This document shows, one piece after another, positions 537 through 55,182 of a DNA stretch of 64,000 nucleotides. This DNA comes from an uncultured Candidatus Saccharibacteria bacterium (GTDB lineage Bacteria; Patescibacteriota; Minisyncoccia; Phycocordibacterales; UBA12088), in assembly GCA_964567265.1 (NCBI GenBank), contig CAZMLK010000001.1:331723-395722 (forward strand). The letters are read 5' to 3'. The notes beneath the pieces are model-generated. The model was not told the DNA's origin. It ran no database searches and was given only the letters and a program-made list of their open reading frames with translations. A program made the translations under genes and the position numbers. Within the stretch, counting starts at the first letter, position 1; each line of letters begins with the position of its first letter.

Positions 537-607
537 GGGCCTATAGTTCAGCGGTAGAATGCATCCATGGCATGGATGAGGCCGGGGTCCGACTCCCCGT
601 AGGTCCA
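537..607 (+). tRNA. tRNA-Ala (anticodon GGC), atypical T-loop
   Basis: Cloverleaf read by hand: acceptor GGGCCTA/TAGGTCC with G3:U70 Ala identity pair, anticodon loop ATGGCAT, discriminator A; T-loop reads TCCGACT (C at position 55 instead of U). Confidence 0.75.
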
Positions 608-641
608 CAGGATTCGGGAGAAGGAAAAAATTGAACCCTTT

Positions 642-673
642 GTCGGGGTGTAGTACAGGGGTAGTATACACGC
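642..673 (+). repeat. 32-nt direct duplicate of tRNA-Pro 5' half (acceptor 5' strand + D arm + 5' anticodon stem)
   Basis: GTCGGGGTGTAGTACAGGGGTAGTATACACGC occurs identically at 642-673 and 691-722; second copy is the 5' part of the intact tRNA. Confidence 0.9.
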
Positions 674-692
674 GCGGGGTTGGATTTTGTGT

Positions 693-763
693 CGGGGTGT
701 AGTACAGGGGTAGTATACACGCTTCGGGTGCGTGAGACCCGAGTTCGATTCTCGGCACCCCGA
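693..763 (+). tRNA. tRNA-Pro (anticodon CGG)
   Basis: Acceptor CGGGGTG/CACCCCG (C1:G72 as in bacterial tRNA-Pro), D stem GTAC/GTAT, anticodon loop TTCGGGT (CGG, G37), T loop TTCGATT, discriminator A. Confidence 0.85.
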
Positions 764-777
764 CACAAAATCTAACC

Positions 778-797
778 AAAAGTCCTGCGGACTTTTG
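778..797 (+). terminator. rho-independent terminator after tRNA-Pro
   Basis: AAAAGTCC-TGC-GGACTTTT perfect 8-bp stem with U-tract. Confidence 0.6.
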
Positions 798-803
798 CGG
801 CAT

Positions 804-861
804 GTCGGAAGAGAGACCTGAGTTCCATTCTCCTACGAGAGGACAGGCCGGCACTCCGACA
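804..861 (+). pseudogene. decayed tRNA-Pro-like remnant (internally deleted copy)
   Basis: GTCGGAAG..GAGACCTGAGTTCCATTCTC..insert..GGCACTCCGACA parallels tRNA-Pro acceptor 5' strand and GAGACCCGAGTTCGATTCTCGGCACCCCGACA 3' half, with point changes and a ~17-nt insertion; D and anticodon arms missing. Confidence 0.5.
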
Positions 862-874
862 AAGAGTTTAAAAT

Positions 875-948
875 GGGCGCGTAGCTCAGTTGGTTAGAGC
901 GTACGCTTCACACGCGTAAGGTCACAGGTTCGATCCCTGTCGCGCCCA
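875..948 (+). tRNA. tRNA-Val (anticodon CAC)
   Basis: GGGCGCG acceptor, D arm GCTC-AGTTGGTTA-GAGC, anticodon loop TTCACAC, T loop TTCGATC, CGCGCCC-A 3' end. Confidence 0.9.
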
Positions 949-961
949 CAGGAAAAGATAT

Positions 962-1034
962 GGGCCTGTAGCTCAGCTGGTAGAGCGCTGCATTCGCATT
1001 GCAGAGGTCAGGGGTTCGACTCCCCTCAGGTCCA
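962..1034 (+). tRNA. tRNA-Ala (anticodon CGC)
   Basis: GGGCCTG acceptor with G3:U70, anticodon loop TTCGCAT, T loop TTCGACT, CAGGTCC-A. Confidence 0.9.
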
Positions 1035-1109
1035 CCGAGCAAGGCGAGGTACTGAGGGGGGGACGGCCGGAAGGAAATCTCCCCCGGACATTTTCTGGAG
1101 AATCAGTAT

Positions 1110-13730: not shown

Positions 13731-16700
13731 TTAGAAGTGCAGCTTGCCTGGCTTCTGGACGTAGAGGATCGGCACGAGGAGGAGCGTGATGACTGCCGCA
13801 AACGCGAGACCGAACATGATCGCGATCGCGAGCGGCGCCCAAAGGCCTCCCGCCAAGGAGAGCGGGATCATGCCGATCACGGTCGTGATGTTGGTGAGTG
13901 TGATCGGGCGGAGGCGGATCGCGGCTCCTTCGATGACCACGTCGTGGATCGGCATGTCAGGGTGCTCGAGGCGGAGCTTGTTGATCACGTCGATGAGGAG
14001 AATGGTGTGGTTCACAATGATGCCCGCGAGCGCGATGAAGCCGAGAAGCGATGGGAATGAGAGCGGAAGGCGCGTGAGCGCGAGGCCGACCATGATGCCG
14101 ATCAATGTGAGCGGCACGATCGAGAGGACATAGAGTGAATGGCGCCATGAGTTGAAGTCGAACATGAGAACCGCGAGCATGAAGATGATGCCTGCGATGA
14201 GGGCGAAGAACATTTCCATGAACGACTGGTCCACTTCCTCATTCTCGCCTCCGATCACCATGCGGACTCCGCTCTGGATCGTGAGCGTCTCACCTGCCCG
14301 CTTCTTGAATTCGGCGGTGACGTCGCGAGCGTTTGCGCCCTCGAGCAGATCGCTTCCGACAGTCGCGACGCGATCGCCTTCCTCGTGGTTGATCGCAGCG
14401 CTTGCTTTCGCGACGCGCGAGGAAAGGAGCGAGCCGAGAAGGACCGCCCCCTGCGGCGTCGGCACTTGGATGGCCTCGATGGATTCGATGCCGGTCTTCG
14501 CGGCGTCATGCGGATCCGTATAGGACGGATTGAGGTTCGCGGAGACGATCACCTCTATGTCTCCGTTCGGTGTGCGGATCGTGGTCGCCTTCGTGCCCTG
14601 GACCGCCGTCCGCAGGATCGAAGCCACTGACGCGGAGTCGATGCCGAGCTCGGCAGCCTTCGCCTTGTCGATCGAGAGGATGAATTCCGTACCGTCGTCC
14701 TTGGTGGAGGTAGTGATATTCGAAGTTCCGTCGATGCCCGCAAGGATCTTTGCTGATGCGTCTGCGAGGCGCTCCATTGCCTCGAGATCCTCACCGAGGA
14801 ATTTCACGAGGATCGGACGGCCGACGGGCGGCCCGTTCTGCGGCTCGCTGATGCGGACTTCGCTGGTGTGGATGGTCCGGAACCGCTCGCGGAGGAGTGC
14901 GGAAAGCTCTGCGCTCGTGCGATCGCGATCTTTCGCTTTCTTGAGATTGATGAAGATGTTTCCGAGCTTGCTGTCGCTGCTTGGATTATTTCCAAACTGG
15001 CTCGATGCGCCCGCAGTGATAGAGAAGGAAGAAATTTCGGGGATGTCGTAGAGTGACTCCTCGATGCGGCGAAGCTCGAGATCGGTGACCTGTACCGGCG
15101 TGCCCTGCGGCATCTCGACTTCGGTAATGAGGTAGTCTACATCCTCGCCAGGGAAGAAGATGACCTTCACGACTCCGATGATCGGGAAGAGGAGCGAAAC
15201 GAAGAAGAGGCCGATCAAGGACCATTTGATCTGCCGCATGAGGCGCGGCTTGTAGAGGATGTCGCTCATCGTCTTCCGGTACCAGGCCTGGAAGCGATCC
15301 ATATAGCGATCCTGCCAAGTCTTTGCATTCTCGCCAGAATGGCCGGTCAATGTTGAGGCGCCGATGAGTGGCACAAACACGAGCGCGACCACGAGAGAGG
15401 CGATGAGGACGAAGATGATGGTGAAGGGGATGGTGGCGATAAACTGGCCCGTGACGCCCGAGATGAAGAAGAGTGGCACGAACACGGCGACCGTCGTGAG
15501 GATTCCGGTCGTAAGCGGCGCATGATAAGTCTTCACGGCGAGAAGCGCGGCCTCGGCACGAGAATGCCCCTTCGTGATGAAGGTGTACATGCTTTCGACG
15601 ATCACGATGCCGGCATCGACGAGGATACCGACCGCAAGGATGAGCGCGAACAGGGAGACGAAGTTGATTGTGTTCCCGGACTTGTAGAGGCCGATGAACG
15701 CGAGGATGAATGAAATCGGGATCGAGGAGCTCGCGACAAGGGCTTCACGCCAGCCAACGGTGAGGAAGAGGACGAGCATCACGAGAATGACGGTCTCGAA
15801 GCCGGTGCGGGTGAGCTCGGAAAGGCTCTTCTTGAGTTCCTCTCCTGAGTTGAATACGGAAATGACGGTGATGCCATCGAGAGACTCGCCCGGCTTCTGG
15901 AGCTCTACGAGCTTCGCATCCACCGCATCAGTGATTGTCGTGATATTCCCGCCGCTTCGTTTGAATACGGAAAGGGTGAGGGAGGAATTGGAAGGCTGGC
16001 CGCCGACGGAGATGCGGGAAATGCTGGTTTCCGGCGCAAGGCCGTCATAGACATCCGCGACGTCGCGGACATACACGGCGCGGCCGTTAATCGAGGTGAT
16101 CGCGAGGTCTCGGATCTCTGAAGGGTCATTGATATCGCCCTCGAACTGGATGCCGTAGCGGACGCCATCGAGCTCGATGGCTCCGACAGGGAGGTTCGCG
16201 TTGCCGCGTGCAAGGGCGCCGATCACGTCAGTGATGCGGATGCCGTAGGATGCGAGCGCTTCCTTGCGGACCACCACCTGCGTCTCGCGATCGCGCTTGC
16301 CGCCGATCTCGACACGGGAAACGCCGGGAACGGTGATCAGCTGGTCCTTCAGATTTTCAGCAAGCGTGCCGAGCTCTTCAGGCGGCGCGTCGCTTCCGAT
16401 CGCGAACGTATAAATAGGCTGGTTGACGAAATTGACGTCGGAGACGATCGGATCGTTCGCTTCATCAGGAAGTTCGGTCTTCACCTTATCCACTTCATCC
16501 TTGAGGTCTTGGATGGATTTATCGAGGTCTGCGCTCGCGGTGAATTCGACGACGACGGTCGAAACGCTCTCACGCGAGGTCGAGGTGACATTCTTCACGT
16601 TCTCAAGGCTTCCGGAGAGCTGATCCTCCACCTTGTTGGTGATGAGGGTCTCCACATCGAGTGCGGAGGCACCCGGCAAAAATACGGAAACAACGCCGAT

Positions 16701-16832
16701 CGGAATGCGCACTTCAGGTGCGGATTCCTTCGGGATGACGATCAGCGAATACAGTCCGGCAACCGCAAGGGCGCCGAGCAGCAAGTACGTGAAATTCTGC
16801 TTTTGAATGAAGAAGCTCCAGAGTCGGTACAT
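13731..16832 (-). CDS. RND family efflux transporter permease (AcrB/HAE1-like)
   Basis: 1033 aa, 12-TM RND architecture, N-terminal ..LIVIPKESAPEVRIPIGVVSVFLPGASALDVE.. Confidence 0.9.
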   Translation of the reverse strand: MYRLWSFFIQKQNFTYLLLGALAVAGLYSLIVIPKESAPEVRIPIGVVSVFLPGASALDVETLITNKVEDQLSGSLENVKNVTSTSRESVSTVVVEFTASADLDKSIQDLKDEVDKVKTELPDEANDPIVSDVNFVNQPIYTFAIGSDAPPEELGTLAENLKDQLITVPGVSRVEIGGKRDRETQVVVRKEALASYGIRITDVIGALARGNANLPVGAIELDGVRYGIQFEGDINDPSEIRDLAITSINGRAVYVRDVADVYDGLAPETSISRISVGGQPSNSSLTLSVFKRSGGNITTITDAVDAKLVELQKPGESLDGITVISVFNSGEELKKSLSELTRTGFETVILVMLVLFLTVGWREALVASSSIPISFILAFIGLYKSGNTINFVSLFALILAVGILVDAGIVIVESMYTFITKGHSRAEAALLAVKTYHAPLTTGILTTVAVFVPLFFISGVTGQFIATIPFTIIFVLIASLVVALVFVPLIGASTLTGHSGENAKTWQDRYMDRFQAWYRKTMSDILYKPRLMRQIKWSLIGLFFVSLLFPIIGVVKVIFFPGEDVDYLITEVEMPQGTPVQVTDLELRRIEESLYDIPEISSFSITAGASSQFGNNPSSDSKLGNIFINLKKAKDRDRTSAELSALLRERFRTIHTSEVRISEPQNGPPVGRPILVKFLGEDLEAMERLADASAKILAGIDGTSNITTSTKDDGTEFILSIDKAKAAELGIDSASVASILRTAVQGTKATTIRTPNGDIEVIVSANLNPSYTDPHDAAKTGIESIEAIQVPTPQGAVLLGSLLSSRVAKASAAINHEEGDRVATVGSDLLEGANARDVTAEFKKRAGETLTIQSGVRMVIGGENEEVDQSFMEMFFALIAGIIFMLAVLMFDFNSWRHSLYVLSIVPLTLIGIMVGLALTRLPLSFPSLLGFIALAGIIVNHTILLIDVINKLRLEHPDMPIHDVVIEGAAIRLRPITLTNITTVIGMIPLSLAGGLWAPLAIAIMFGLAFAAVITLLLVPILYVQKPGKLHF

Positions 16833-16841
16833 AGGATTGTT

Positions 16842-18491
16842 TTAGTTGGCAGCAGCTCCGGCTTCGACAACGACATCACCCGGCTTGAATCCGCGTGCAT
16901 CGGTCACGATGACCATGTCCGGGGTCGCGCCGGTGAGGAGAAGGACTTTTCCTCCGACCACAGATCCGAGAGTGACGACATGCGGGACGAGGGCCATGTT
17001 CTCATCAACGGTAAAGATTGTGGTTTCCGTGGCGCCTATCTTGACTGCGGTAAGCGGAACGAAAAGTTCAGTTGAGGTTGCGTTGCCGTTCGTTGAAGCA
17101 ACTGGCGTGCCGCCTGTTCGTTCAATATCGATGCGAACCGTAGAGCCCTGCGTAAGAACTGCAGCCTTGTCGGTGACACCGACCTTGATCTCGACCTTCT
17201 TTGTCGCTGGATCAAGTCCGGGAGCGACTGAGGTGACGACGCCCGCATACTTTCCTTCGATCTGCGCCTTGGCGCCGACAACAATGGAATTCTTCTCGCG
17301 ATCGCTGACATACGCCACGATCTCGAGGCCGCCGTTCGACGAGGATACGGTCGCCGCGGGCTCGAACGAGCCGACGAATGACCCCTTCGAGAGCGTGAGC
17401 GTGTTCACTTTTCCGGAGATCGGAGTGCGGACGACGCTCTTCTCGTAGTTGGCGCGCGCGAGCGCGAGCGAGGCTTCTGCCTGCTTGAGACCGGCATCTG
17501 CGGCACGCACATCCTCGCTCTGTCCGCCCACCTGGCCCTGGGTCAGATTCTTTTCCGCGATCTCGAGAGCGCTGCGGCGATTGCTCAGATTTTCTTCCGC
17601 AGCAGTCACGGCCGAAAGATTGGCGAGGATGGTGGTGCGGCCGGTCGCGGCGCTCACTTTATATCCGGCGATGTCGCTGTCGGAAACGGTGCCGGTGGAG
17701 ATTGCACGGTTCAGCGCTGCCGCAAGGGTGTCGAAGAATGCTTTCACCGTCTGGAGCTCTGCTTCGGTCGTCTTCAGTTCCGAATCGACATTGGATGCAG
17801 ACAGCGTGCCGCGGGCTCCCGCCTCGCGCTTCATGATGCCTTCGATCTTGATGCGTGCGGCAACGAGGTTGGTCGCGAGCTGTGAATCGGAAGCGGTGAT
17901 ATTGAAACTCGGATTCGAGGAACGCGGGTTCGAGAACATCTCATCCGCCAGGCGGGTGACCGTGTCATCGATCGCGGCGTATGCCGACTGGACCGTGGTC
18001 TGCGCGCCTGTCTCAGCATTCCGAAGGGAAGACTCCGCGTTGTCGCGGCTTATCGTGAGGACCGAGAGCTGCTCGTTCCGGACGCCGCGCGTGAGCTTGT
18101 CGTACGAGGCCTGTGCCTGCGCGACGAATGCTGCAGCCTGCGCGACGCTTGCACGTTCAGACGCATTCTCGATTTCAGCGAGAACCGCTCCCGCGCCGAC
18201 CGTATCTCCGACGTGCGCATAGACGGCAGTCACTTCGCCCGACTTCTCGGTGCGGAGGATTGCCTCAGACTGCGAGTGGACCGTTCCGATGACCGGAAGG
18301 GTCGCCTTTGATGACGCAAGCGCTGCAATCGAGGAGAGAGTGACCTGACGGGTGTGCGTGTCCGCGACGGCTGCATCGTCACCATTACCTCCGAAAATGA
18401 AATACGCACCGGCTGCAAGGAGGACGATCAGCAAAAGGGCGCCGAGAACGATCCGGTTTTTCGAAGCGAAGGTCATGTTCTTGAAATTCAT
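16842..18491 (-). CDS. efflux RND periplasmic adaptor / membrane fusion protein
   Basis: N-terminal TM, biotin-lipoyl-like hairpin (AVYAHVGDTVGAGAVLAEI), long coiled coil, beta-barrel C-terminus; 9 nt upstream of RND permease. Confidence 0.85.
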   Translation of the reverse strand: MNFKNMTFASKNRIVLGALLLIVLLAAGAYFIFGGNGDDAAVADTHTRQVTLSSIAALASSKATLPVIGTVHSQSEAILRTEKSGEVTAVYAHVGDTVGAGAVLAEIENASERASVAQAAAFVAQAQASYDKLTRGVRNEQLSVLTISRDNAESSLRNAETGAQTTVQSAYAAIDDTVTRLADEMFSNPRSSNPSFNITASDSQLATNLVAARIKIEGIMKREAGARGTLSASNVDSELKTTEAELQTVKAFFDTLAAALNRAISTGTVSDSDIAGYKVSAATGRTTILANLSAVTAAEENLSNRRSALEIAEKNLTQGQVGGQSEDVRAADAGLKQAEASLALARANYEKSVVRTPISGKVNTLTLSKGSFVGSFEPAATVSSSNGGLEIVAYVSDREKNSIVVGAKAQIEGKYAGVVTSVAPGLDPATKKVEIKVGVTDKAAVLTQGSTVRIDIERTGGTPVASTNGNATSTELFVPLTAVKIGATETTIFTVDENMALVPHVVTLGSVVGGKVLLLTGATPDMVIVTDARGFKPGDVVVEAGAAAN

Positions 18492-18960: not shown

Positions 18961-19482
18961 ATGAGCCTCCTAGTGTTCTTGTTCGTACTCCAGCAGCTCG
19001 CGCTTGCGCTTGCGATCGGTTCGTCCACCTTCTCGATCATCTTCTACTACAAGTCCATCCGTGACGGGAAGATCGACTCCGAGGAGCGGAGCTTCATGTC
19101 CATCGTGTACCGCGTGCTCAGGATCGGGCTCATGCTCATCGTCATCTCCGAGCTCCTCCTTCTCGCGGTCTTCACCTCAGAGAATTCATTGTCCTCGCTT
19201 CTCACAAACGGTTTCTGGTTCCGCTGGCTCCTCCTTGGCATCATTGTCATGAATGCCGTTCTCATGGACCTCCGGAAAATGCCGATGTGGCTCGGCCCGG
19301 CGCTCGCGGGCGCGTCGTGGTACATGTACGCCATCATCACCACGCTCGCTCGCGGCGGCATCGATACCAACTTCTTTGCCTGGGCCTACTATTACGTGAT
19401 CCTCGTTGCCGCATTTGTCGGACTTCTCTCACTGGTCCAGCGCATCTACGTCGATCGAAAGCCGGCCGAAGGCCTTCTTTAA
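18961..19482 (+). CDS. membrane protein, unknown function
   Basis: 5 predicted hydrophobic helices; no family motif recognised. Confidence 0.6.
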   Translation: MSLLVFLFVLQQLALALAIGSSTFSIIFYYKSIRDGKIDSEERSFMSIVYRVLRIGLMLIVISELLLLAVFTSENSLSSLLTNGFWFRWLLLGIIVMNAVLMDLRKMPMWLGPALAGASWYMYAIITTLARGGIDTNFFAWAYYYVILVAAFVGLLSLVQRIYVDRKPAEGLL

Positions 19483-19559: not shown

Positions 19560-20657
19560 ATGGCACTCGCAATCGGCATCGTTGGGCTTCCAAACGTGGG
19601 CAAATCCACGCTTTTTAATGCACTGACCAAGAAATCCGTCCCTGCGGAGAACTTCCCATTCTGTACCATCGACCCATCGGTCGGCGTGGTCGCAGTCCCA
19701 GATCCGCGCCTCCAGAAGCTCACTGACTTCGCGCATTCCAAGAAGACTATTCCTGCGGCTGTTGAATTTGTCGACATCGCAGGACTTGTGAAAGGCGCAT
19801 CGGAGGGCGAAGGGTTGGGGAATCAGTTTCTCGCGCATATCCGAGAAGTGGATGCGATTGCAGAGGTGGTGCGTATCTTCGAAGATCCGAATGTCATCCA
19901 CGTGAATGGCGTTGTTGATCCACTTTCGGATATTGAAGTCATCAACCTCGAGCTTATCCTTGCCGATCTTGAAACGGTTGCGAAGCGTCTCGGTACGATT
20001 GAAAAAGAAGTGCGCCGCGGCGACAAGGCCGCACTCATCGAGCAGGAAGCGGCCAACAAGGTGCGGCAGGCTCTCGAATCAGGTCGCCTCGCGAGAAGCG
20101 TCGACCTCACTGAAGCCGAAGAGAAAGCGATCAAGACTCTCCACCTCCTCAGCATGAAATCGATCCTCTACGTGCTCAACAAGCAGGCGGGCGGACACAA
20201 TCTCGATGAGATGAAAGACGAACGCTTCACCAATCTCATTGAATTTCTTGAGATGTCCGGCTCAAGCTACGTGATTGTTGATGCGGGCGTTGAGAACGAG
20301 CTCAAGGATGTGAGCGACGATGACAAGTCTATGTTCCGTGAGGAATTCGGTGTTCTTGATGACGGCATCGATTCGCTCATCAAGAAAGGGTACGAGATGC
20401 TCGGCCTCATGACCTACTTCACGACCGGTGAAGACGAGACGCGTGCATGGACCATTCAGAAAAATTCAACCGCGCCGATTGCAGGAACCGCAATCCACAC
20501 AGACTTCAAAGATAAATTCATCCGCGCAGAGGTGATTCCCTGGGAAAAGCTCCTGGAAGCCGGCTCATACGGCGCCGCACGCGAGAAGGGATGGCTCAAG
20601 ACCGAAGGAAAGGAGTATATCGTTAAGGATGGCGACGTGATTGAGTTCAAAATTTAA
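19560..20657 (+). CDS. ychF: ribosome-binding ATPase YchF
   Basis: IGIVGLPNVGKSTLFNALT G1 motif, TGS C-terminal domain (..VIEFKI). Confidence 0.95.
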   Translation: MALAIGIVGLPNVGKSTLFNALTKKSVPAENFPFCTIDPSVGVVAVPDPRLQKLTDFAHSKKTIPAAVEFVDIAGLVKGASEGEGLGNQFLAHIREVDAIAEVVRIFEDPNVIHVNGVVDPLSDIEVINLELILADLETVAKRLGTIEKEVRRGDKAALIEQEAANKVRQALESGRLARSVDLTEAEEKAIKTLHLLSMKSILYVLNKQAGGHNLDEMKDERFTNLIEFLEMSGSSYVIVDAGVENELKDVSDDDKSMFREEFGVLDDGIDSLIKKGYEMLGLMTYFTTGEDETRAWTIQKNSTAPIAGTAIHTDFKDKFIRAEVIPWEKLLEAGSYGAAREKGWLKTEGKEYIVKDGDVIEFKI

Positions 20658-20692: not shown

Positions 20693-21784
20693 TTATTGCG
20701 ATACTCGAGACAATACGAACGTACAGAGCCTCTGAAATACGACCGCGATGCCGATAAGGAGTGGTAGGTATAGGAGTGTCGCTACTGCCGGCGGAAGTGC
20801 TTGATACAAGACTTCGTATCTTGAAATGAGTGGCCAGTGGAAGAGGTAGATTTCGTACGAATAAAGCCCGAAGAGTGCAAAAAAGCCAAATTCAAAACGC
20901 GAGAGAGCAAGGAGTGCGATTACCAGAAGCATGGTTACGATACTGATTGATTGCTCGAGCGTAATCGAACCACCGACGCCCGAATGGATCGCGAGATGGC
21001 TGATTCCGGCAGCAAGTAGAGTGACTGCAATGATTCTTGAAGGAATGGGCATGTCCGCAATCCGCTTGCCGAGCTCAAGCTTCCGTACCCGTGCCGATGA
21101 TATCGTCCAGGCAGCAAGCATCCCAAGAGGGAACGCAATCAGATGTACCGCATAGAGTCTGACAACATCGGCGATATATGCGGGCTCAATGAAGATGATG
21201 CCGTACGTGAATGCATAGAGCAAAAACGCTGAAAGCCACGGCCGTGGTCGGGAGAAAAACAAAGGGAATGCGATGTAGTAGAAGACGATGATGGTGAAGT
21301 ACCACATCGGCGAATTGATATCTGTGAAGGCGTTCGCGCTCGTGAATATGCCTAGCGCAGACTGTAGCAGGTATGAAAGCGAATAGTATTTTGAAAGTAT
21401 GAACCCATCGAGCGCTGTAAAGATCGCAAGCGCAAGCCAGAACGGGATGTAGAGCCGCGGCAACTGCTCTCGGTAAAATTTCAAAATCGAGTTGTCATGC
21501 GAAAGGGCATACAGCGTACGTCCGTATCCCGAAAGAAAGAGGAACAGATTGACTGCGACGCCTGCAAAGATTGAAAAAGGGAAGAGGAATGCGGGAGTAT
21601 CGGAAAGCAGATATCCGATATGGGCAAAGAAGACCGCAAGGATCGCAAATCCCTTAAGTTCCGTCGTCCGTTCAAGCGGTAAGAGGTCAACATCCGTCCG
21701 GCGCCTTGCAGAAAATAAAATCGCTAACACAAGCGCTGCGGTGACAACCATAGTCGACAACACTGGATTTTCTATATGAATCAT
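20693..21784 (-). CDS. acyltransferase family 3 membrane protein
   Basis: ~10 TM, LKGFAILAVFFAHIGYL motif typical of acyltransferase_3 (OafA/OpgC-like); possible upstream start at 21820. Confidence 0.8.
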   Translation of the reverse strand: MIHIENPVLSTMVVTAALVLAILFSARRRTDVDLLPLERTTELKGFAILAVFFAHIGYLLSDTPAFLFPFSIFAGVAVNLFLFLSGYGRTLYALSHDNSILKFYREQLPRLYIPFWLALAIFTALDGFILSKYYSLSYLLQSALGIFTSANAFTDINSPMWYFTIIVFYYIAFPLFFSRPRPWLSAFLLYAFTYGIIFIEPAYIADVVRLYAVHLIAFPLGMLAAWTISSARVRKLELGKRIADMPIPSRIIAVTLLAAGISHLAIHSGVGGSITLEQSISIVTMLLVIALLALSRFEFGFFALFGLYSYEIYLFHWPLISRYEVLYQALPPAVATLLYLPLLIGIAVVFQRLCTFVLSRVSQ

Positions 21785-21962
21785 GTCTCGACATCCTTTC
21801 ACATGCAGCATGGATTGCAAATGAATGGATGGCCAGCATCATTTTCTACGGACCAGAGTTGCCGCACTGTCAAACCCGTGTCCCCATTTGCGAAATGAGA
21901 CGCTTCATTTACAACACATGGATTCGTTGTACAATGCCTCTATTACGAGCTTAGCCAATCCT

Positions 21963-22934
21963 ATGGACTCAAGCATGCCGAAGCCGAAGCTGACGCCGAA
22001 GGACTTCGTCCTCTACGCCGGCGCGATGATCGCACTCTATGTCAGTGTCTTCTCCCTCCTCGCGCTTCTTTTTAATTACGTCGACTATTCGTTCCGCGAC
22101 GCCCTCGATTACATCGACCCATACAATGGCGCGATGCGTGCGGCCATGGCCTCGCTGATCGTCTTCTTCCCGCTGTTTGTGTGGCTCACCCGCGTACTCA
22201 ACCAGGGGATGCGTGCTGATTCATCGATGCGCGAGAGCGGTTTCCGCCGTTGGATCCTCTACATCACGCTTCTCATCGCTGGACTCGCTATGGCGATCGA
22301 CCTCGTTGTCCTCATCAATACCTTCCTCGGCGGCGAAATCACGACGCGGTTTATTCTTAAAGTGATCGCTGTCCTCGTTGTCGCTGCAAGCGTCTTCGGA
22401 TACTACCTTGCAGATCTCCGTGGCTACTGGCAGCAGAATGAGAGCAAGTCGAAAGCGGCCGGCGCGGTGGCACTTGCAGCAGTCATTATCTCGATCGTCG
22501 CTGGATTCTTCATCATGGGTTCTCCAGCTTCACAGCGCCTGCTCCGCTTCGATGAACAGCGCGTTTCCGATCTTCAGAACATGCAGTGGCAGCTGGTGAA
22601 CTACTGGCAGGCGAAGCAGAAGCTCCCGGAATCGCTCGGTGAGCTGACCAATTCCATTGCCGGATTCACCGTACCGAAGGATCCTGAGACGGGTGCCGAC
22701 TATACGTACAGCGTGGTCGGAGGAGGAGCTCCGAGCTTCAAGCTCTGCGCGACCTTCAGCACGGATTCAAGCAAGACTACTGGCCGCTCCAATCCGATCT
22801 ATGCGCCGATGGTTGATCAGGGCATCAAGGGCGGCAACACCTGGGATCATGGAACGGGAAATGTCTGCTTCGACCGGACCATCGATCCCGATTTCTACCC
22901 GCCGATCAACGCGCCGACGAAAGGAGTCCTCTAA
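21963..22934 (+). CDS. membrane protein (4 TM) with C-terminal type IV pilin-like globular domain, no prepilin leader
   Basis: After last TM: R.SDLQNMQWQLVNYWQAKQKLPESLGEL..DPETGADYTYSV..FKLCATF matches pilin alpha1-C/globular domain consensus; no G|FTLIE cleavage site; alternative starts 21825/21918/21975. Confidence 0.65.
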   Translation: MDSSMPKPKLTPKDFVLYAGAMIALYVSVFSLLALLFNYVDYSFRDALDYIDPYNGAMRAAMASLIVFFPLFVWLTRVLNQGMRADSSMRESGFRRWILYITLLIAGLAMAIDLVVLINTFLGGEITTRFILKVIAVLVVAASVFGYYLADLRGYWQQNESKSKAAGAVALAAVIISIVAGFFIMGSPASQRLLRFDEQRVSDLQNMQWQLVNYWQAKQKLPESLGELTNSIAGFTVPKDPETGADYTYSVVGGGAPSFKLCATFSTDSSKTTGRSNPIYAPMVDQGIKGGNTWDHGTGNVCFDRTIDPDFYPPINAPTKGVL

Positions 22935-22960: not shown

Positions 22961-25405
22961 ATGGAATTCTACGACCACAAAAAAGTCGAGTCGAAATGGC
23001 AGTCCCGGTGGGATTCTGAAAAGCTGTACGCGGCCAGCGATGATCATTCAAGAAAAAAATACTTCGCACTCATAGAATTCCCGTACCCATCGGGCGCCGG
23101 ACTCCATGTGGGCCATCCGCGCCCGTACATCGGGCTCGACATCGTGGCGAGGAAGCGCCGCATGCAGGGATTCAACGTGCTCTATCCGATCGGATGGGAT
23201 GCCTTCGGCCTTCCGACCGAGAACTACGCGATCAAGACGGGCCGCAATCCGCGCGACATCACCAAGGAGAATTCCGACACCTTCCGCCGCCAGATCAAAT
23301 CCCTCGGCGTGTCGTTTGACTGGTCACGTGAGATCAACACCACTGATCCCAAGTACTACAAATGGACGCAGTGGATCTTCCTCCAGCTCCTGAAGCATGA
23401 CCTCGCGTACAAGGCGAAGACGCTCATCAATTGGTGCCCTAAGGATAAGATTGGGCTCGCGAACGAGGAAGTCGTCGACGGCAAGTGCGAGCGTTGCGGT
23501 ACGGTCGTCGAGAAACGTGAGAAAGAGCAATGGATGCTCGCGATCACGAAATACGCTGACCGCCTCTACAACGATCTCGATACCGTCGACTATATCGAGC
23601 GCGCGAAGATCCAGCAGCGCAATTGGATCGGCCCGTCCGAAGGCGCCGAGATTGATTTCGAACTTCTCTTCACGCATCAGCCATCAGCGAACGCGAACCG
23701 TGGACCGAATGGCGAGAAGGCCGCACTCAAAGTATTCACGACTCGGGCGGACACGCTCTTTGGCGTGACCTATCTTGTGCTGGCGCCCGAACATCCCTGG
23801 GTGACACTCGCGACCGACGCCGATCACGACGTGCTCGCGAACAAGGATGCCGTGAAAGCATATGTCGAAGCGGCAGGGAAGAAGACGGACTTCGAGCGTG
23901 GTGCTGACGCGAAAGAAAAGACAGGAATCAAGATCGAGGGCGTCGTTGCGATCAATCCCGCAACTAAGGAAGAGATCCCGATGTATGTTGCGGACTACGT
24001 GCTCGCGGGCTATGGCACCGGAGCGATCATGGCTGTTCCTGCCCATGATGAACGCGACTCTGCATTCGCGGCCGCCTTTGATATCCCTCGTCGGTCAGTC
24101 ATTTCTGGAGGCACCGAAGGCGAGCTTTTCACGGGCGAAGGGAGGCTCGTTGATTCCGGAGAATTCACCGGCATGGAGAGTGCCGAAGCGAAGGAAAAAA
24201 TCACGCTCTTCGTCGAAGGTAAGATCGCAAAATCCTACAAGCTCCGTGATTGGGTATTCTCGCGCCAGCGCTACTGGGGCGAGCCGATTCCGGTCGTCCA
24301 TTGTGAAAAGGATGGCATCGTGCCGCTTCCCGAAGACCAGCTCCCGCTCATCCTTCCAGACGTCGAGAACTATGTCCCGACCGACAACGGCGATTCACCT
24401 CTTGCGAATATTACTGATTGGGTCAACACGACCTGTCCGAAATGCGGCGGACCCGCGAAGCGCGAGACCGATACCATGCCCAATTGGGCGGGCTCTTCCT
24501 GGTACTACCTCCGGTATACCGATCCAACGAATGATACTGCGCTTGCATCCCCTGAAAATCTGAAGTACTGGACGCCGGTCGATTGGTACAACGGCGGCAT
24601 GGAGCATACGGTGCTCCATCTCCTATATTCGCGCTTCTGGCACAAGTTCCTCTTCGACATCGGCGTCGTGCCGACGTCAGAGCCATATATGAAGCGGACT
24701 TCGCATGGGCTTATCCTTGCAGAAGGGGGGGCGAAGATGTCGAAATCGGTCGGGAATGTCGTCAATCCCGATGAGATCGTCGAGCGCTTCGGCGCGGACA
24801 CGCTCCGCGTCTACGAGATGTTCATGGGACCGTTCGAGCAGGCGATCGCCTGGTCAACCGACAACCTCGTCGGTACGAAGCGCTTCTTGGAGCGCGTCGA
24901 GAAGACCTCACAGAAAGTCGGGGATGCCGCACTCTCGCCATCGCTCGAAATCCTTCTCAATCAGACGATCCGCAAGGTCGGGGAGGATATCGAGCAGCTG
25001 AAGATGAACACGGCGATCTCCGCGCTCATGATCCTCCACAATGAGCTTGAAAAACTCGAAGTCGTGCCGAAGAATGCATTCACCGTGTTCTTGCAGCTCC
25101 TCGCGCCGTTTGCACCGCATCTTGCCGATGAGCTGTATGAACGCATCGGGAACGGTGTCTCGATCCATGCGAGCCCTTGGCCTGTGTTTGACGAGTCGAA
25201 AACGGAATCCGAAACGGTAATGATTGCTGTCCAGATCAATGGCAAGGTCCGCGGAGAGCTGGGGGCTCCGCGCGGCGTTTCCGAAGCTGATGTGGTCACC
25301 GCCGTGCACGGAAAGCCGGAACTGATGCGCTATCTGGAAGGGAAGTCGGTTTCGAAAACCTTCTACGTCCCGAACCGCCTTATCAATTTCGTCCTTTCTG
25401 GTTGA
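22961..25405 (+). CDS. leuS: leucine--tRNA ligase
   Basis: PYPSGAGLHVGHPRPY HIGH motif, KMSKS, 814 aa. Confidence 0.97.
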   Translation: MEFYDHKKVESKWQSRWDSEKLYAASDDHSRKKYFALIEFPYPSGAGLHVGHPRPYIGLDIVARKRRMQGFNVLYPIGWDAFGLPTENYAIKTGRNPRDITKENSDTFRRQIKSLGVSFDWSREINTTDPKYYKWTQWIFLQLLKHDLAYKAKTLINWCPKDKIGLANEEVVDGKCERCGTVVEKREKEQWMLAITKYADRLYNDLDTVDYIERAKIQQRNWIGPSEGAEIDFELLFTHQPSANANRGPNGEKAALKVFTTRADTLFGVTYLVLAPEHPWVTLATDADHDVLANKDAVKAYVEAAGKKTDFERGADAKEKTGIKIEGVVAINPATKEEIPMYVADYVLAGYGTGAIMAVPAHDERDSAFAAAFDIPRRSVISGGTEGELFTGEGRLVDSGEFTGMESAEAKEKITLFVEGKIAKSYKLRDWVFSRQRYWGEPIPVVHCEKDGIVPLPEDQLPLILPDVENYVPTDNGDSPLANITDWVNTTCPKCGGPAKRETDTMPNWAGSSWYYLRYTDPTNDTALASPENLKYWTPVDWYNGGMEHTVLHLLYSRFWHKFLFDIGVVPTSEPYMKRTSHGLILAEGGAKMSKSVGNVVNPDEIVERFGADTLRVYEMFMGPFEQAIAWSTDNLVGTKRFLERVEKTSQKVGDAALSPSLEILLNQTIRKVGEDIEQLKMNTAISALMILHNELEKLEVVPKNAFTVFLQLLAPFAPHLADELYERIGNGVSIHASPWPVFDESKTESETVMIAVQINGKVRGELGAPRGVSEADVVTAVHGKPELMRYLEGKSVSKTFYVPNRLINFVLSG

Positions 25406-49237: not shown

Positions 49238-50293
49238 ATGGCGAAGGACTACTACAAAACGCTAGGGCTTGAAAAAGGTGCCTCGAAGGAGGAGATCAAG
49301 AAGGCTTTCCACAAGCTGGCCCACAAGTACCACCCGGACAAGAAGACGGGCGACGAGGCCAAGTTCAAGGAGGTCTCTGAGGCGTACAGCATCCTCTCCG
49401 ACGACAAGAAGCGCGCAGAGTACGATTCGTATGGCCGTACCTTCACTGGCGCCGGCGGGCCAGACGGCTTCGACTTCTCTGGCTTCCAGGGCGGCAATCC
49501 GTTCCAGGGCTTCGAGTTCGATCTCGGGGATATTTTCGGCGACATCTTCGGGCAGAGCGGCGGGCGCGAGCGCCGCGGCCGGGATATCTCGATCGATCTC
49601 CAGCTTCCGCTGAAGGATATCGTCTTCGGGACCGAGCGGACCGTCATGCTCACCAAGACAAGTTCGTGTCCGCTGTGCGCCGGTTCTGGTGCGGAGCCGG
49701 GTACCGAACTCATCACCTGCAAGACATGCAATGGGAAGGGAAAGATCCATGAGAGCCGCAATTCGTTCTTCGGCTCGATCGCGACGACCCGCGTCTGTCC
49801 TGATTGTTCAGGGACCGGTACTGTTCCCAAGACCCCATGTTCTGAATGCCACGGCGTCGGCGTCGTGAAGCGACAGGACGATATCGTCATCAAGGTCCCG
49901 CCCGGCATCAACGACGGCGAGATGATCCGGCTTGCCGGCATGGGCGAAGCGGTTCCGAAGGGAACGACTGGCGATCTGTACGTGAAGATCCGCGTCGAGC
50001 GCGATACGACCTTCACTCGCGAAGGCTCGAATCTGATCATGAACCACACCATCAAGCTTTCGGATGCGCTCCTTGGCTCCAAATACACCATCAAGACATT
50101 CGACGGCGATGTCCAAGTAACCGTGCCTCCTGGCATCGGCTTCGGCGAATTCCTCCGCGTAAAAGGGAAGGGTGTCGTCATTCCACAGGGCGGCCGCGGC
50201 GACCTCCTTATCCGCATCGTTATCCAGCTCCCGAACAAGCTTTCCCGGAAAGCACGTGAGGCTGTGGAAAAGCTCCAGGAAGAAGGCATATAG
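49238..50293 (+). CDS. dnaJ: molecular chaperone DnaJ
   Basis: J domain HPD (KYHPDKK), G/F region, four CxxCxGxG zinc-finger repeats. Confidence 0.97.
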   Translation: MAKDYYKTLGLEKGASKEEIKKAFHKLAHKYHPDKKTGDEAKFKEVSEAYSILSDDKKRAEYDSYGRTFTGAGGPDGFDFSGFQGGNPFQGFEFDLGDIFGDIFGQSGGRERRGRDISIDLQLPLKDIVFGTERTVMLTKTSSCPLCAGSGAEPGTELITCKTCNGKGKIHESRNSFFGSIATTRVCPDCSGTGTVPKTPCSECHGVGVVKRQDDIVIKVPPGINDGEMIRLAGMGEAVPKGTTGDLYVKIRVERDTTFTREGSNLIMNHTIKLSDALLGSKYTIKTFDGDVQVTVPPGIGFGEFLRVKGKGVVIPQGGRGDLLIRIVIQLPNKLSRKAREAVEKLQEEGI

Positions 50294-53787: not shown

Positions 53788-55182
53788 ATGGGTATATTCT
53801 CGCGCCGAACAACCGCCCCTCCCCAGAGCGACGGTGCACCCGTAGACAAATCAAAGGAGGTTGCCGAGAGCTTGTACCGGCAGAATCTGGAGCTGGCGGT
53901 TACCAACAAGACGCTGTCTCTTCTTGAGAAGCTTTACGGCATCAGCATTCTCAGCCTCGACTCGAAGGAAATCGCGAAGCGGATCAGCGAAACGATCCGC
54001 GAGGACTTCAATTTCGCGGAAGTCAGCATTCTCAGTTTTGACCAAAAGACGGACGGACTTACAGAACTCGCTTCCGCCATGTCTCAGAAATTCGAGAGCG
54101 TGCGCGGAGCCCTCGCGGATTGTTACCCGAAGGCATCGGAAACGCCCTTCTTCCGCACCGCAATTACGGACCGTAAAATGGGCTATACGGAGGATCTTCG
54201 GGAAGTATTCGGAAGCAAGCCGGACAGAGCACTCCTTGAGAAGCTGATTACCGAAGGACATGCACGCTCTGCGATCAGCTTCCCGCTCATCACCGATGAT
54301 GCAGTGATCGGGGTCTGCCTCCTCATTCTTAATCGCGTGTATGCCGAGCTTGCTGCGTATGAAAAAGATTCGATGGCAAGCTTCACGAACGTGATCGCAG
54401 TCGCGCTCGACAAGGCGCGACTTTATGAGCAGCTGAAGACGAGCAACGAGCAGCTCGGGAAGACGAATGAGCGTCTGCGCATCCTTGACCAGCAGAAGAC
54501 AGAATTCGTTTCGATCGCCTCGCACCAGCTCCGCGCTCCAGTGACGGCGCTCAAGGGCTATGCATCTCTGATTCTTGAAGGCTCCTTTGGGGCAGTCCCG
54601 GAAACCATGAAGGAGGCAGTATCCCGCATCTTCGAGTCGAGCAAATACATGGCAGCCTCGATCGATGACTTCCTCAGCATCACGCGCATCGAGCAGGGGC
54701 AGATGAAATATGACTACAAGACGTTCAACGCCGTGAAATTGGGCAAGCAGACCTACGAGGAATACATCCCGCTCGCGGAAAAGAAGAAGCTCGAGCTCAC
54801 ATTCACCGGCGACGGCGAACTCAACGTGAACGCGGACGAGAACAAGATCAAGCAGGTCATGACGAACCTCGTTGATAATGCAGTCAAGTATACGATCCAA
54901 GGCTTCGTAGCGATCAGCGTGACCATGGATCCATCCGGCACGAAGGTCCTGTTCGCAGTCAAGGATTCAGGCATCGGTATCTCGGAAGAGGACCGCCAGA
55001 AGCTGTTCACAAAATTCGGCCGGGCATCGAATGCCAATACTGCGAATGTGCAGGGAACCGGGCTCGGCCTCTTCGTGGCGGAACAGATGGTGAAGGCGCA
55101 AGGCGGCGCGATCACCATTTTCTCTGAGGGGGCAGGGAAGGGGACGACCTTCACGATGGAGCTTCCCACGGCGAGGAAATAG
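53788..55182 (+). CDS. cytoplasmic sensor histidine kinase (GAF + HisKA + HATPase_c)
   Basis: H-box FVSIASHQLRAP, N-box NLVDNAVKYT, G1 DSGIGI, G2 GTGLGL; no TM; no adjacent response regulator. Confidence 0.9.
   Translation: MGIFSRRTTAPPQSDGAPVDKSKEVAESLYRQNLELAVTNKTLSLLEKLYGISILSLDSKEIAKRISETIREDFNFAEVSILSFDQKTDGLTELASAMSQKFESVRGALADCYPKASETPFFRTAITDRKMGYTEDLREVFGSKPDRALLEKLITEGHARSAISFPLITDDAVIGVCLLILNRVYAELAAYEKDSMASFTNVIAVALDKARLYEQLKTSNEQLGKTNERLRILDQQKTEFVSIASHQLRAPVTALKGYASLILEGSFGAVPETMKEAVSRIFESSKYMAASIDDFLSITRIEQGQMKYDYKTFNAVKLGKQTYEEYIPLAEKKKLELTFTGDGELNVNADENKIKQVMTNLVDNAVKYTIQGFVAISVTMDPSGTKVLFAVKDSGIGISEEDRQKLFTKFGRASNANTANVQGTGLGLFVAEQMVKAQGGAITIFSEGAGKGTTFTMELPTARK

Follow-up and report, generated by a model that had tools for sequence, protein, structure and literature searches.

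A DUF5671 membrane protein of Paceibacteria that most likely carries an uncleavable, pilin-homologous module

Type IV pilins are defined by a cleavable class III signal peptide, the motif for which surveys of pilin diversity search, and their alpha1-N helix is generally highly conserved. The archaeal proteins FlaF and FlaG are archaellin-like, uncleaved stator proteins held in the membrane by an unprocessed hydrophobic N-terminal helix; each has a single transmembrane (TM) helix and the archaellin beta-sandwich fold, and their genes lie inside the archaellum operon. The epibiotic life of Patescibacteria reportedly relies on pili and surface contacts. Type IV pili are described as well conserved in this phylum (PMC11623550), and class Paceibacteria is reported to have pilBCDMT clusters (PMC9763046). 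In modular pilins an N-terminal IPR012902 pilin module is followed by an additional C-terminal functional module, as in PilB of S. sanguinis (Raynaud et al. 2021, PMC8179133). Here we describe a gene in a 64,000-nucleotide stretch of contig CAZMLK010000001.1 (the window, to which all coordinates refer) that encodes, with its stop codon at 21963-22934 on the forward strand, a 323-residue protein composed of a DUF5671 domain, a further TM helix (TM5) and a pilin-like head. Judged from its sequence, the protein is most likely a core membrane protein of Kaiserbacteria-type Paceibacteria in which DUF5671 is fused to a complete type IV pilin module that would be uncleavable.

At the level of sequence profiles, the C-terminal ~135 residues prove homologous to type IV pilins in their alpha1-C helix and head, and the homology extends to the phylum's major prepilins. 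An alignment of the C-terminal part of the family (A2, residues 160-323) was compared by hhalign with an alignment of 34 Patescibacteria prepilins (A3) taken from the matches to a synthetic probe; the 120 listed matches all carry PF07963, and many of them are named prepilin, GspG or PilA by their source databases. The A3 profile matches solved Geopilin, GspG, PilA and PilE chains, an indication that it is a bona fide pilin set, and its globular part alone matches N-terminally truncated EpsG/GspG structures (E about 1e-4). A2 and A3 align with 95.5% probability (P=1.3e-8); the 114 aligned columns begin in the final turn of TM5 and end with the last strand. With either alignment reversed, or with the A3 columns shuffled 40 times, the probability was at most 1.3% and the score at most 18.5, compared with 55.7 for the real pair. 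Removal of both hydrophobic helices leaves the match nearly unchanged (95.3%, P=2.3e-8), the part after the helix is sufficient by itself (81%, P=1.2e-5), and a comparison restricted to the helix scores low (18%). For a disjoint set of 86 further pilins the probability is 97.0% (P=8e-11), and the DUF5671 domain gives nothing when aligned with pilins.

Moreover, when a hidden Markov model (HMM) of the pilin head lacking alpha1-N was run against the 714 six-frame open reading frames (ORFs) of at least 50 residues in the window, the ORF of this gene was the sole match (E=6.4e-8; next E=2). Conservation reaches at least 80% in both families at 32 of the aligned columns; the residue is identical in 15 of them (S187, R192, D197, D203, Q208, P222, L225, P231, P238, D240, P241, Y247, Y249, A263 and C302) and similar in four more. 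The significance of the alignments, the clean controls, the unique HMM match and the shared columns together argue that the head is homologous to pilin heads. An earlier note, made from the letters of the DNA, had recognised a domain resembling pilins within the C-terminal ~130 residues and tied the idea to pilin similarity in profile searches; such similarity is found between profiles (95-97%, P of 1e-8 to 1e-10), and is absent from the Foldseek, PDB and Pfam searches taken up below.

Two AlphaFold2 (AF2) models of the protein are confident, with predicted local distance difference test (pLDDT) values of 85.8 and 89.0. Beyond a hinge at the end of TM5 the chain runs through a 31-residue helix, a loop, strands 248-252 and 258-265, the loop 266-293, strand 299-307 and an extended tail. 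Helix residues R192, D197, D203 and Q208 coincide with the pilin invariants R28, D33, D39 and Q44, and the head carries a motif specific to the family, W-x-H-G...CF[ED]RTIDP. Its two invariant cysteines, C262 and C302, which presumably form a disulfide, fit an extracytoplasmic location. Some relatives extend the head at its C-terminus by a Gmad2 Ig-like domain (P0288, P0290) or a Cys-rich tail (P0387), and in another (P0315) an unannotated extension of ~80 residues is found. The Gmad2 and Cys-rich extras of these few members point to an exposed C-terminus and recall the modular pilins (PMC8179133).

The membrane domain at the other end of the protein matches Pfam DUF5671 (PF18920) with E=6.7e-23 and 81.5 bits, relative to a gathering cutoff of 28.4, almost end to end (profile positions 2-130 of 132). 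An NCBIfam scan of the 323-residue protein gave no match, and weak, sub-threshold matches of Acyl_transf_3 and DUF7937 to its TM region were dismissed as noise from TM composition. Kyte-Doolittle hydropathy identifies five hydrophobic segments (about 15-37, 58-77, 96-119, 129-148 and 165-185), in agreement with the five long helices of the AF2 model built from 36 homologues (pLDDT 85.8). The earlier note, which had called for a topology prediction, counted four TM helices; there are five, four within DUF5671 and a fifth that precedes the C-terminal domain. Lys and Arg are concentrated in the N-terminus and in loops 78-95 and 149-164, the remaining loops being acidic or uncharged, a distribution that places the N-terminus inside, and the odd number of TM helices places the C-terminal domain outside the cell. 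Hydropathy, modelled helices and loop charges thus yield a predicted topology of five TM helices with the N-terminus in and the C-terminus out. Across the family P12, D14 and F15 of the N-terminus are invariant, the outer loops DPYS and FLGG[DE] are conserved, and polar residues are conserved within the membrane region (D113 and N119 in TM3, K133 in TM4, and R59, which opens TM2).

TM5 is found where a pilin has alpha1-N. In the hhalign register residue n of the protein corresponds to mature pilin residue n-164, and TM5 (165-185) with the helix 188-218 reproduces the pilin arrangement of a hydrophobic helix continuous with an amphipathic alpha1-C in the register of pilin residues 1-54. This bears out the proposal of the earlier note that an internal TM helix of a polytopic protein takes the place of alpha1-N, except that the helix is the fifth and not the fourth. 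The register pairs Phe1 with Ala165, Gly-1 with Lys164 and Glu5 with Val169, none of which is conserved in the family. Instead of a class III signal peptide, a 164-residue polytopic domain ends with Lys164 at position -1; TM5 has no conserved acidic residue across 36 sequences, and, as the earlier note had stated for the protein, no G/[FM]xxxE prepilin motif is present in it, nor in any of the six frames of the window, by strict or loose regular expression. Among the TM stretches, conservation is lowest in the first half of TM5 (mean column identity 0.55); the value for alpha1-N of the 34 prepilins is 0.97, inflated since the search probe contained alpha1-N. At the end of TM5 the invariant residues are Gly186-x-Pro188. 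The 164 residues that precede TM5 constitute a Pfam domain of their own, as conserved as the head, and are not a leader. From the missing Gly-1, Glu5 and motif, the variable start of TM5 and the non-leader N-terminus we infer that the module would be incapable of prepilin-peptidase processing, extraction from the membrane and entry into a filament core.

Table 1. Positions in the window of the gene, the parts of its product and its two syntenic neighbours.
Feature	Coordinates	Strand	Remarks
Promoter-like site TTTACA-16-TACAAT	21908..21935	+	10/12, a consensus match only; 28 nt upstream of the ATG
DUF5671-TM5-pilin-head gene	21963..22934	+	Identical database protein, many homologues
Cytoplasmic N-terminus (predicted), residues 1-14	21963..22004	+	Invariant TPKDF motif; 3 K/R, fits positive-inside
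DUF5671 four-helix membrane domain, residues 15-146	22005..22400	+	Pfam match, hydropathy, AF2 model
TM5, residues 165-185, positional equivalent of pilin alpha1-N	22455..22517	+	Preceded by K162/K164; no Gly-1, no Glu5
Gly186-Ser187-Pro188 hinge	22518..22526	+	Conserved; outer membrane face; helix break at 186-187; aligns with pilin positions 22-24
Alpha1-C-like amphipathic helix, residues 188-218	22524..22616	+	AF2 models, hhalign
Pilin-like head, residues 219-313	22617..22901	+	Alpha-beta loop with VPxDPxxGxxYxY, three strands
Cys262, strand 2, invariant	22746..22748	+	Presumably disulfide-bonded to Cys302; Gly in the aligned pilins
Loop, residues 266-293	22758..22841	+	Hypervariable in length and sequence, low pLDDT, mean column identity 0.37
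Cys302, strand 3, invariant	22866..22868	+	Aligns with the last conserved Cys of pilins
ychF, upstream neighbour	19560..20657	+	Same strand, within 1.5 kb upstream in 67/80 species loci
leuS, downstream neighbour	22961..25405	+	Same strand, downstream in 73/80 species loci

The longest ORF over the gene is 21825-22934 (+). The promoter-like site falls within this longer ORF and favours a start at 21963, where the Met is encoded with which all homologues begin (pattern MD..KPK[LV]TPKDF), and one database protein is 100% identical to the 323-residue product over its full length. These three observations establish the gene as 21963-22934, and the ORF and the peptides that the earlier note quoted from it are real.

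The family is large and its members are similar in build. More than 2300 homologues are found among 90% clusters, and the top 120 listed are all about 310-325 residues long; among 50%-identity clusters 5634 match at E<=1e-3, of which 3745 reach E<=1e-10 and 1192 reach E<=1e-30, and the best 150 all align over their full length. A member is encoded in at least 464 species-level genomes, whose labels are Kaiserbacteria, Paceibacterota, Parcubacteria and the like. Synteny was assessed at the gene loci of 80 species, most of which share the neighbours ychF and leuS (Table 1). In the window the stop codon of the gene and the start of leuS are separated by a 26-nt gap with no terminator-like site, and the scanned window ORFs, with the syntenic loci that stand for the remainder, are of housekeeping character only (ATP synthase, an RND (resistance-nodulation-division) pump, tRNA synthetases, ribosomal proteins, DnaK/DnaJ, ScpAB and MraY/FtsW/MurG). 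No prepilin motif and no PilB/PilT Walker motif were found in the 1.3 Mb around the gene (within 10 kb, 80 species), and neither the 20 window ORFs that were scanned nor the annotations of the syntenic loci that cover the rest contain pilus-related Pfam families. The gene is thus not encoded with PilB, PilC or PilD in the window or within 10 kb in the 80 species. The earlier note had suggested a search for pilin, PilB and PilC genes; within the surroundings of the gene, which this search covers, none appear, and its idea of a pilus-base component gains no support from the context.

The features described above are combined in the explanation that we favour and that, taken as a whole, we consider probable: the protein would offer, on the outside of the cytoplasmic membrane, a fixed surface for binding or docking, formed by a static, uncleaved, pilin-derived ectodomain. 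With TM5 covalently joined to the four-helix bundle, the module would be neither processed, nor pulled from the bilayer, nor stacked into a filament core. The pilin-like ectodomain, stapled by a Cys262-Cys302 disulfide, would stand on the outer face of the membrane, and TM5 would hold it against the conserved outer loops of DUF5671. The pilin head would have been exapted and would be expressed constitutively, as that of a core gene, with ychF and leuS. For the bound partner, a pilus-independent ligand in the envelope or on the surface has, in our estimate, a little less than an even chance, and is favoured by the synteny with housekeeping genes, by the loss of filament-core features and by invariant motifs that are new (W-x-H-G and CF[ED]RTIDP). 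The partner could instead be other pilins or a type IV filament's base, a more tentative choice, weighed because the head is homologous to the major pilin and both the alpha1-N register and the hinge are retained. What is left falls to some other partner.

The retained pilin features also allow a different role, that of an immobile 'stub pilin', a polytopic and non-extractable part of the pilus machinery that would anchor, nucleate, retain or gate type IV filaments at the cytoplasmic membrane. In its favour, homology of the head to the phylum's major pilins extends to the alpha1-C invariants, TM5 has kept alpha1-N's length and register, a helix breaker lies close to pilin position 22, and FlaF and FlaG set a precedent for uncleaved, filament-subunit-like proteins as static parts of a machine. 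Type IV pili and pilBCDMT clusters are, moreover, reported to be well conserved in Patescibacteria, Paceibacteria included (PMC11623550; PMC9763046). However, the surroundings of the gene in 80 species contain neither prepilin nor PilB/PilT Walker motifs, pilus-related Pfam families are missing from the scanned window ORFs and the syntenic annotations, features of the filament core have been lost (no Glu5, a variable first half of TM5), and the head carries invariant motifs of its own that pilins lack. We regard this role as unlikely, if still worth weighing. The module could also be imagined as a pro-pilin, in which the 164-residue polytopic N-terminus is a large leader that some protease removes to release a polymerisable pilin. 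The Lys/Arg residues before TM5 and the pilin-like head after it would suit such a precursor, but the would-be leader is a Pfam family in its own right, conserved to the same degree as the head, and the would-be cleavage site, at the start of the most variable TM stretch, offers no Gly-1, no Glu5 and no conserved residue. With a conserved, independent N-terminal domain and no cleavage-site residues, we reject the pro-pilin as very improbable.

Several points weigh against a fixed, pilin-derived ectodomain. Foldseek searches of the full-length and C-terminal AF2 models against the PDB returned nothing significant (best E 0.36 and 0.91), with one type IVb pilin at rank 49 of the noise list (E=6.3); phmmer and hmmsearch runs of the protein and of the family alignments A1 and A2 found no pilins among PDB sequences; and 36 C-terminal domains scanned against Pfam at E<=10 matched none of its pilin families, PF08334 included. 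The claim for the fold is one of profile-profile homology and predicted secondary structure, not of three-dimensional superposition. Topology, the Cys262-Cys302 disulfide and non-cleavage are predictions. DUF5671 is a family with no assigned function, and a literature search on DUF5671, PF18920 and IPR043728 found no paper that mentions it. The failure of the Foldseek, PDB and Pfam searches to find a significant pilin match, together with the weak helix-only comparison, is what would be expected of a chance or convergent resemblance between unrelated proteins that each have a small sheet after an amphipathic helix. Such a resemblance is difficult to reconcile with P-values of 1e-8 to 8e-11 for two disjoint pilin sets and controls at or below 1.3%, with the match of the post-helix part alone (81%, P=1.2e-5), with the singling out of this gene in a window-wide HMM scan, and with 15 co-conserved identical columns that include PxDP..Y.Y and the terminal Cys. 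On the strength of these P-values, controls, unique match and shared columns we reject chance as an explanation and give it a very low probability.

In this large and strongly conserved syntenic family of Patescibacteria, a pilin head would have become a built-in part of a polytopic membrane protein, an example of a filament subunit converted to a fixed membrane module. Surveys of pilins rely on the signal-peptide motif, and the architecture is therefore invisible to them. An evolutionary origin is given to half of a widespread DUF protein, and predictions that can be tested follow for its topology, its disulfide, the absence of processing and an interaction with pilins. Were the 'stub pilin' to prove correct, the family would add a class of type IV filament component that has so far gone unrecognised, with its genes outside the pilus operons in hundreds of species of ultrasmall bacteria.

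Other observations were made in the neighbourhood of the gene and elsewhere in the window. Between ychF and the DUF5671 gene lies a gene for an Acyl_transf_3-like membrane protein (20693-21820, reverse strand) that is found there in 0/80 species loci, and within the window GC content is lowest (0.506) and AT skew strongest (0.21) in the 20-22 kb block; its absence from the other loci, the low GC and the skew suggest a lineage-specific insertion at 20693-21820. Upstream of ychF, a 173-residue multi-TM protein (18961-19482, forward strand) has no Pfam match and occupies the same position in 8/80 loci. LeuRS of the window (22961-25405) has 814 residues and no NUDIX insertion; in some relatives the enzyme has 951-964 residues and an inserted NUDIX domain (L002 11274-14129, L004 11639-14533). 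By synteny with locus L001, two adjacent ORFs of 1033 and 549 residues (13731-18491, reverse strand) correspond to an RND-type transporter and a membrane-fusion-like protein, a notable pair for a lineage that is generally considered to have no outer membrane. A cluster of four tRNA genes (Ala-GGC, Pro-CGG, Val-CAC and Ala-CGC) is found at 537-1036 (forward strand). A 345-residue ORF at 49252-50289 (reverse strand) mirrors nearly all of dnaJ (49238-50293, forward strand) and is probably the non-coding shadow of a GC-rich gene. A histidine kinase of GAF-HisKA-HATPase composition is encoded at 53788-55182 (forward strand), and the flanking ORFs that were scanned are not response regulators.

Compared with described systems, the protein is a member of DUF5671 and, its signal peptide and Glu5 having been sought and found missing, not a type IV pilin by definition, yet it contains what its profile identifies as a pilin-homologous module. 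Residues 15-146 fit the whole Pfam model, and the domain is present in all close relatives, but the model describes the four-helix domain only and leaves TM5 and the 135-residue pilin-like head unannotated. The link to GspG/EpsG of the type II secretion system (PF08334; PDB 3FU1, 3GN9, 4LW9 and 5WDA) is indirect, through the Patescibacteria pilin profile: a DPxG..Y.Y-type motif and a three-stranded head are common to both, but none of 36 C-terminal sequences matched PF08334 (E<=10), the PDB profile search found no GspG chain, and Foldseek gave no match. The literature found under 'pilin-like domain' and 'transmembrane' concerns ordinary minor pilins with a single TM helix, such as CpaL. FlaF and FlaG are an analogy only, in that a filament-subunit-type fold serves as a static membrane part; the anchor of the DUF5671 protein is polytopic and its fold family a different one. 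With modular pilins (PMC8179133) it shares the principle of a small pilin module fused to another module, but the graft is here N-terminal and replaces the signal peptide, the pilin module lies C-terminal to the extra one, and no IPR012902/PF07963 motif is present.

The closest relatives of the head module are the major type IV prepilins of Patescibacteria (PF07963 N_methyl), annotated as 'prepilin-type N-terminal cleavage/methylation domain protein' or 'type II secretion system protein G'. Unlike these, the DUF5671 protein has no short leader, Gly-1, Phe1 or Glu5; its hydrophobic helix is internal (TM5), poorly conserved and placed after a 164-residue four-TM domain; the putative disulfide partner has moved to strand 2, the W-x-H-G...CF[ED]RTIDP motif is new, and the gene lies away from pilus genes. 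What the two have in common is a hydrophobic helix of ~21 residues that precedes the head in the same register, the helix motif R..D..R.SD...Q, YP/LP, VPxDPxxGxxYxY, an aromatic-x-L-x-A strand and a final Cys-aromatic pair.
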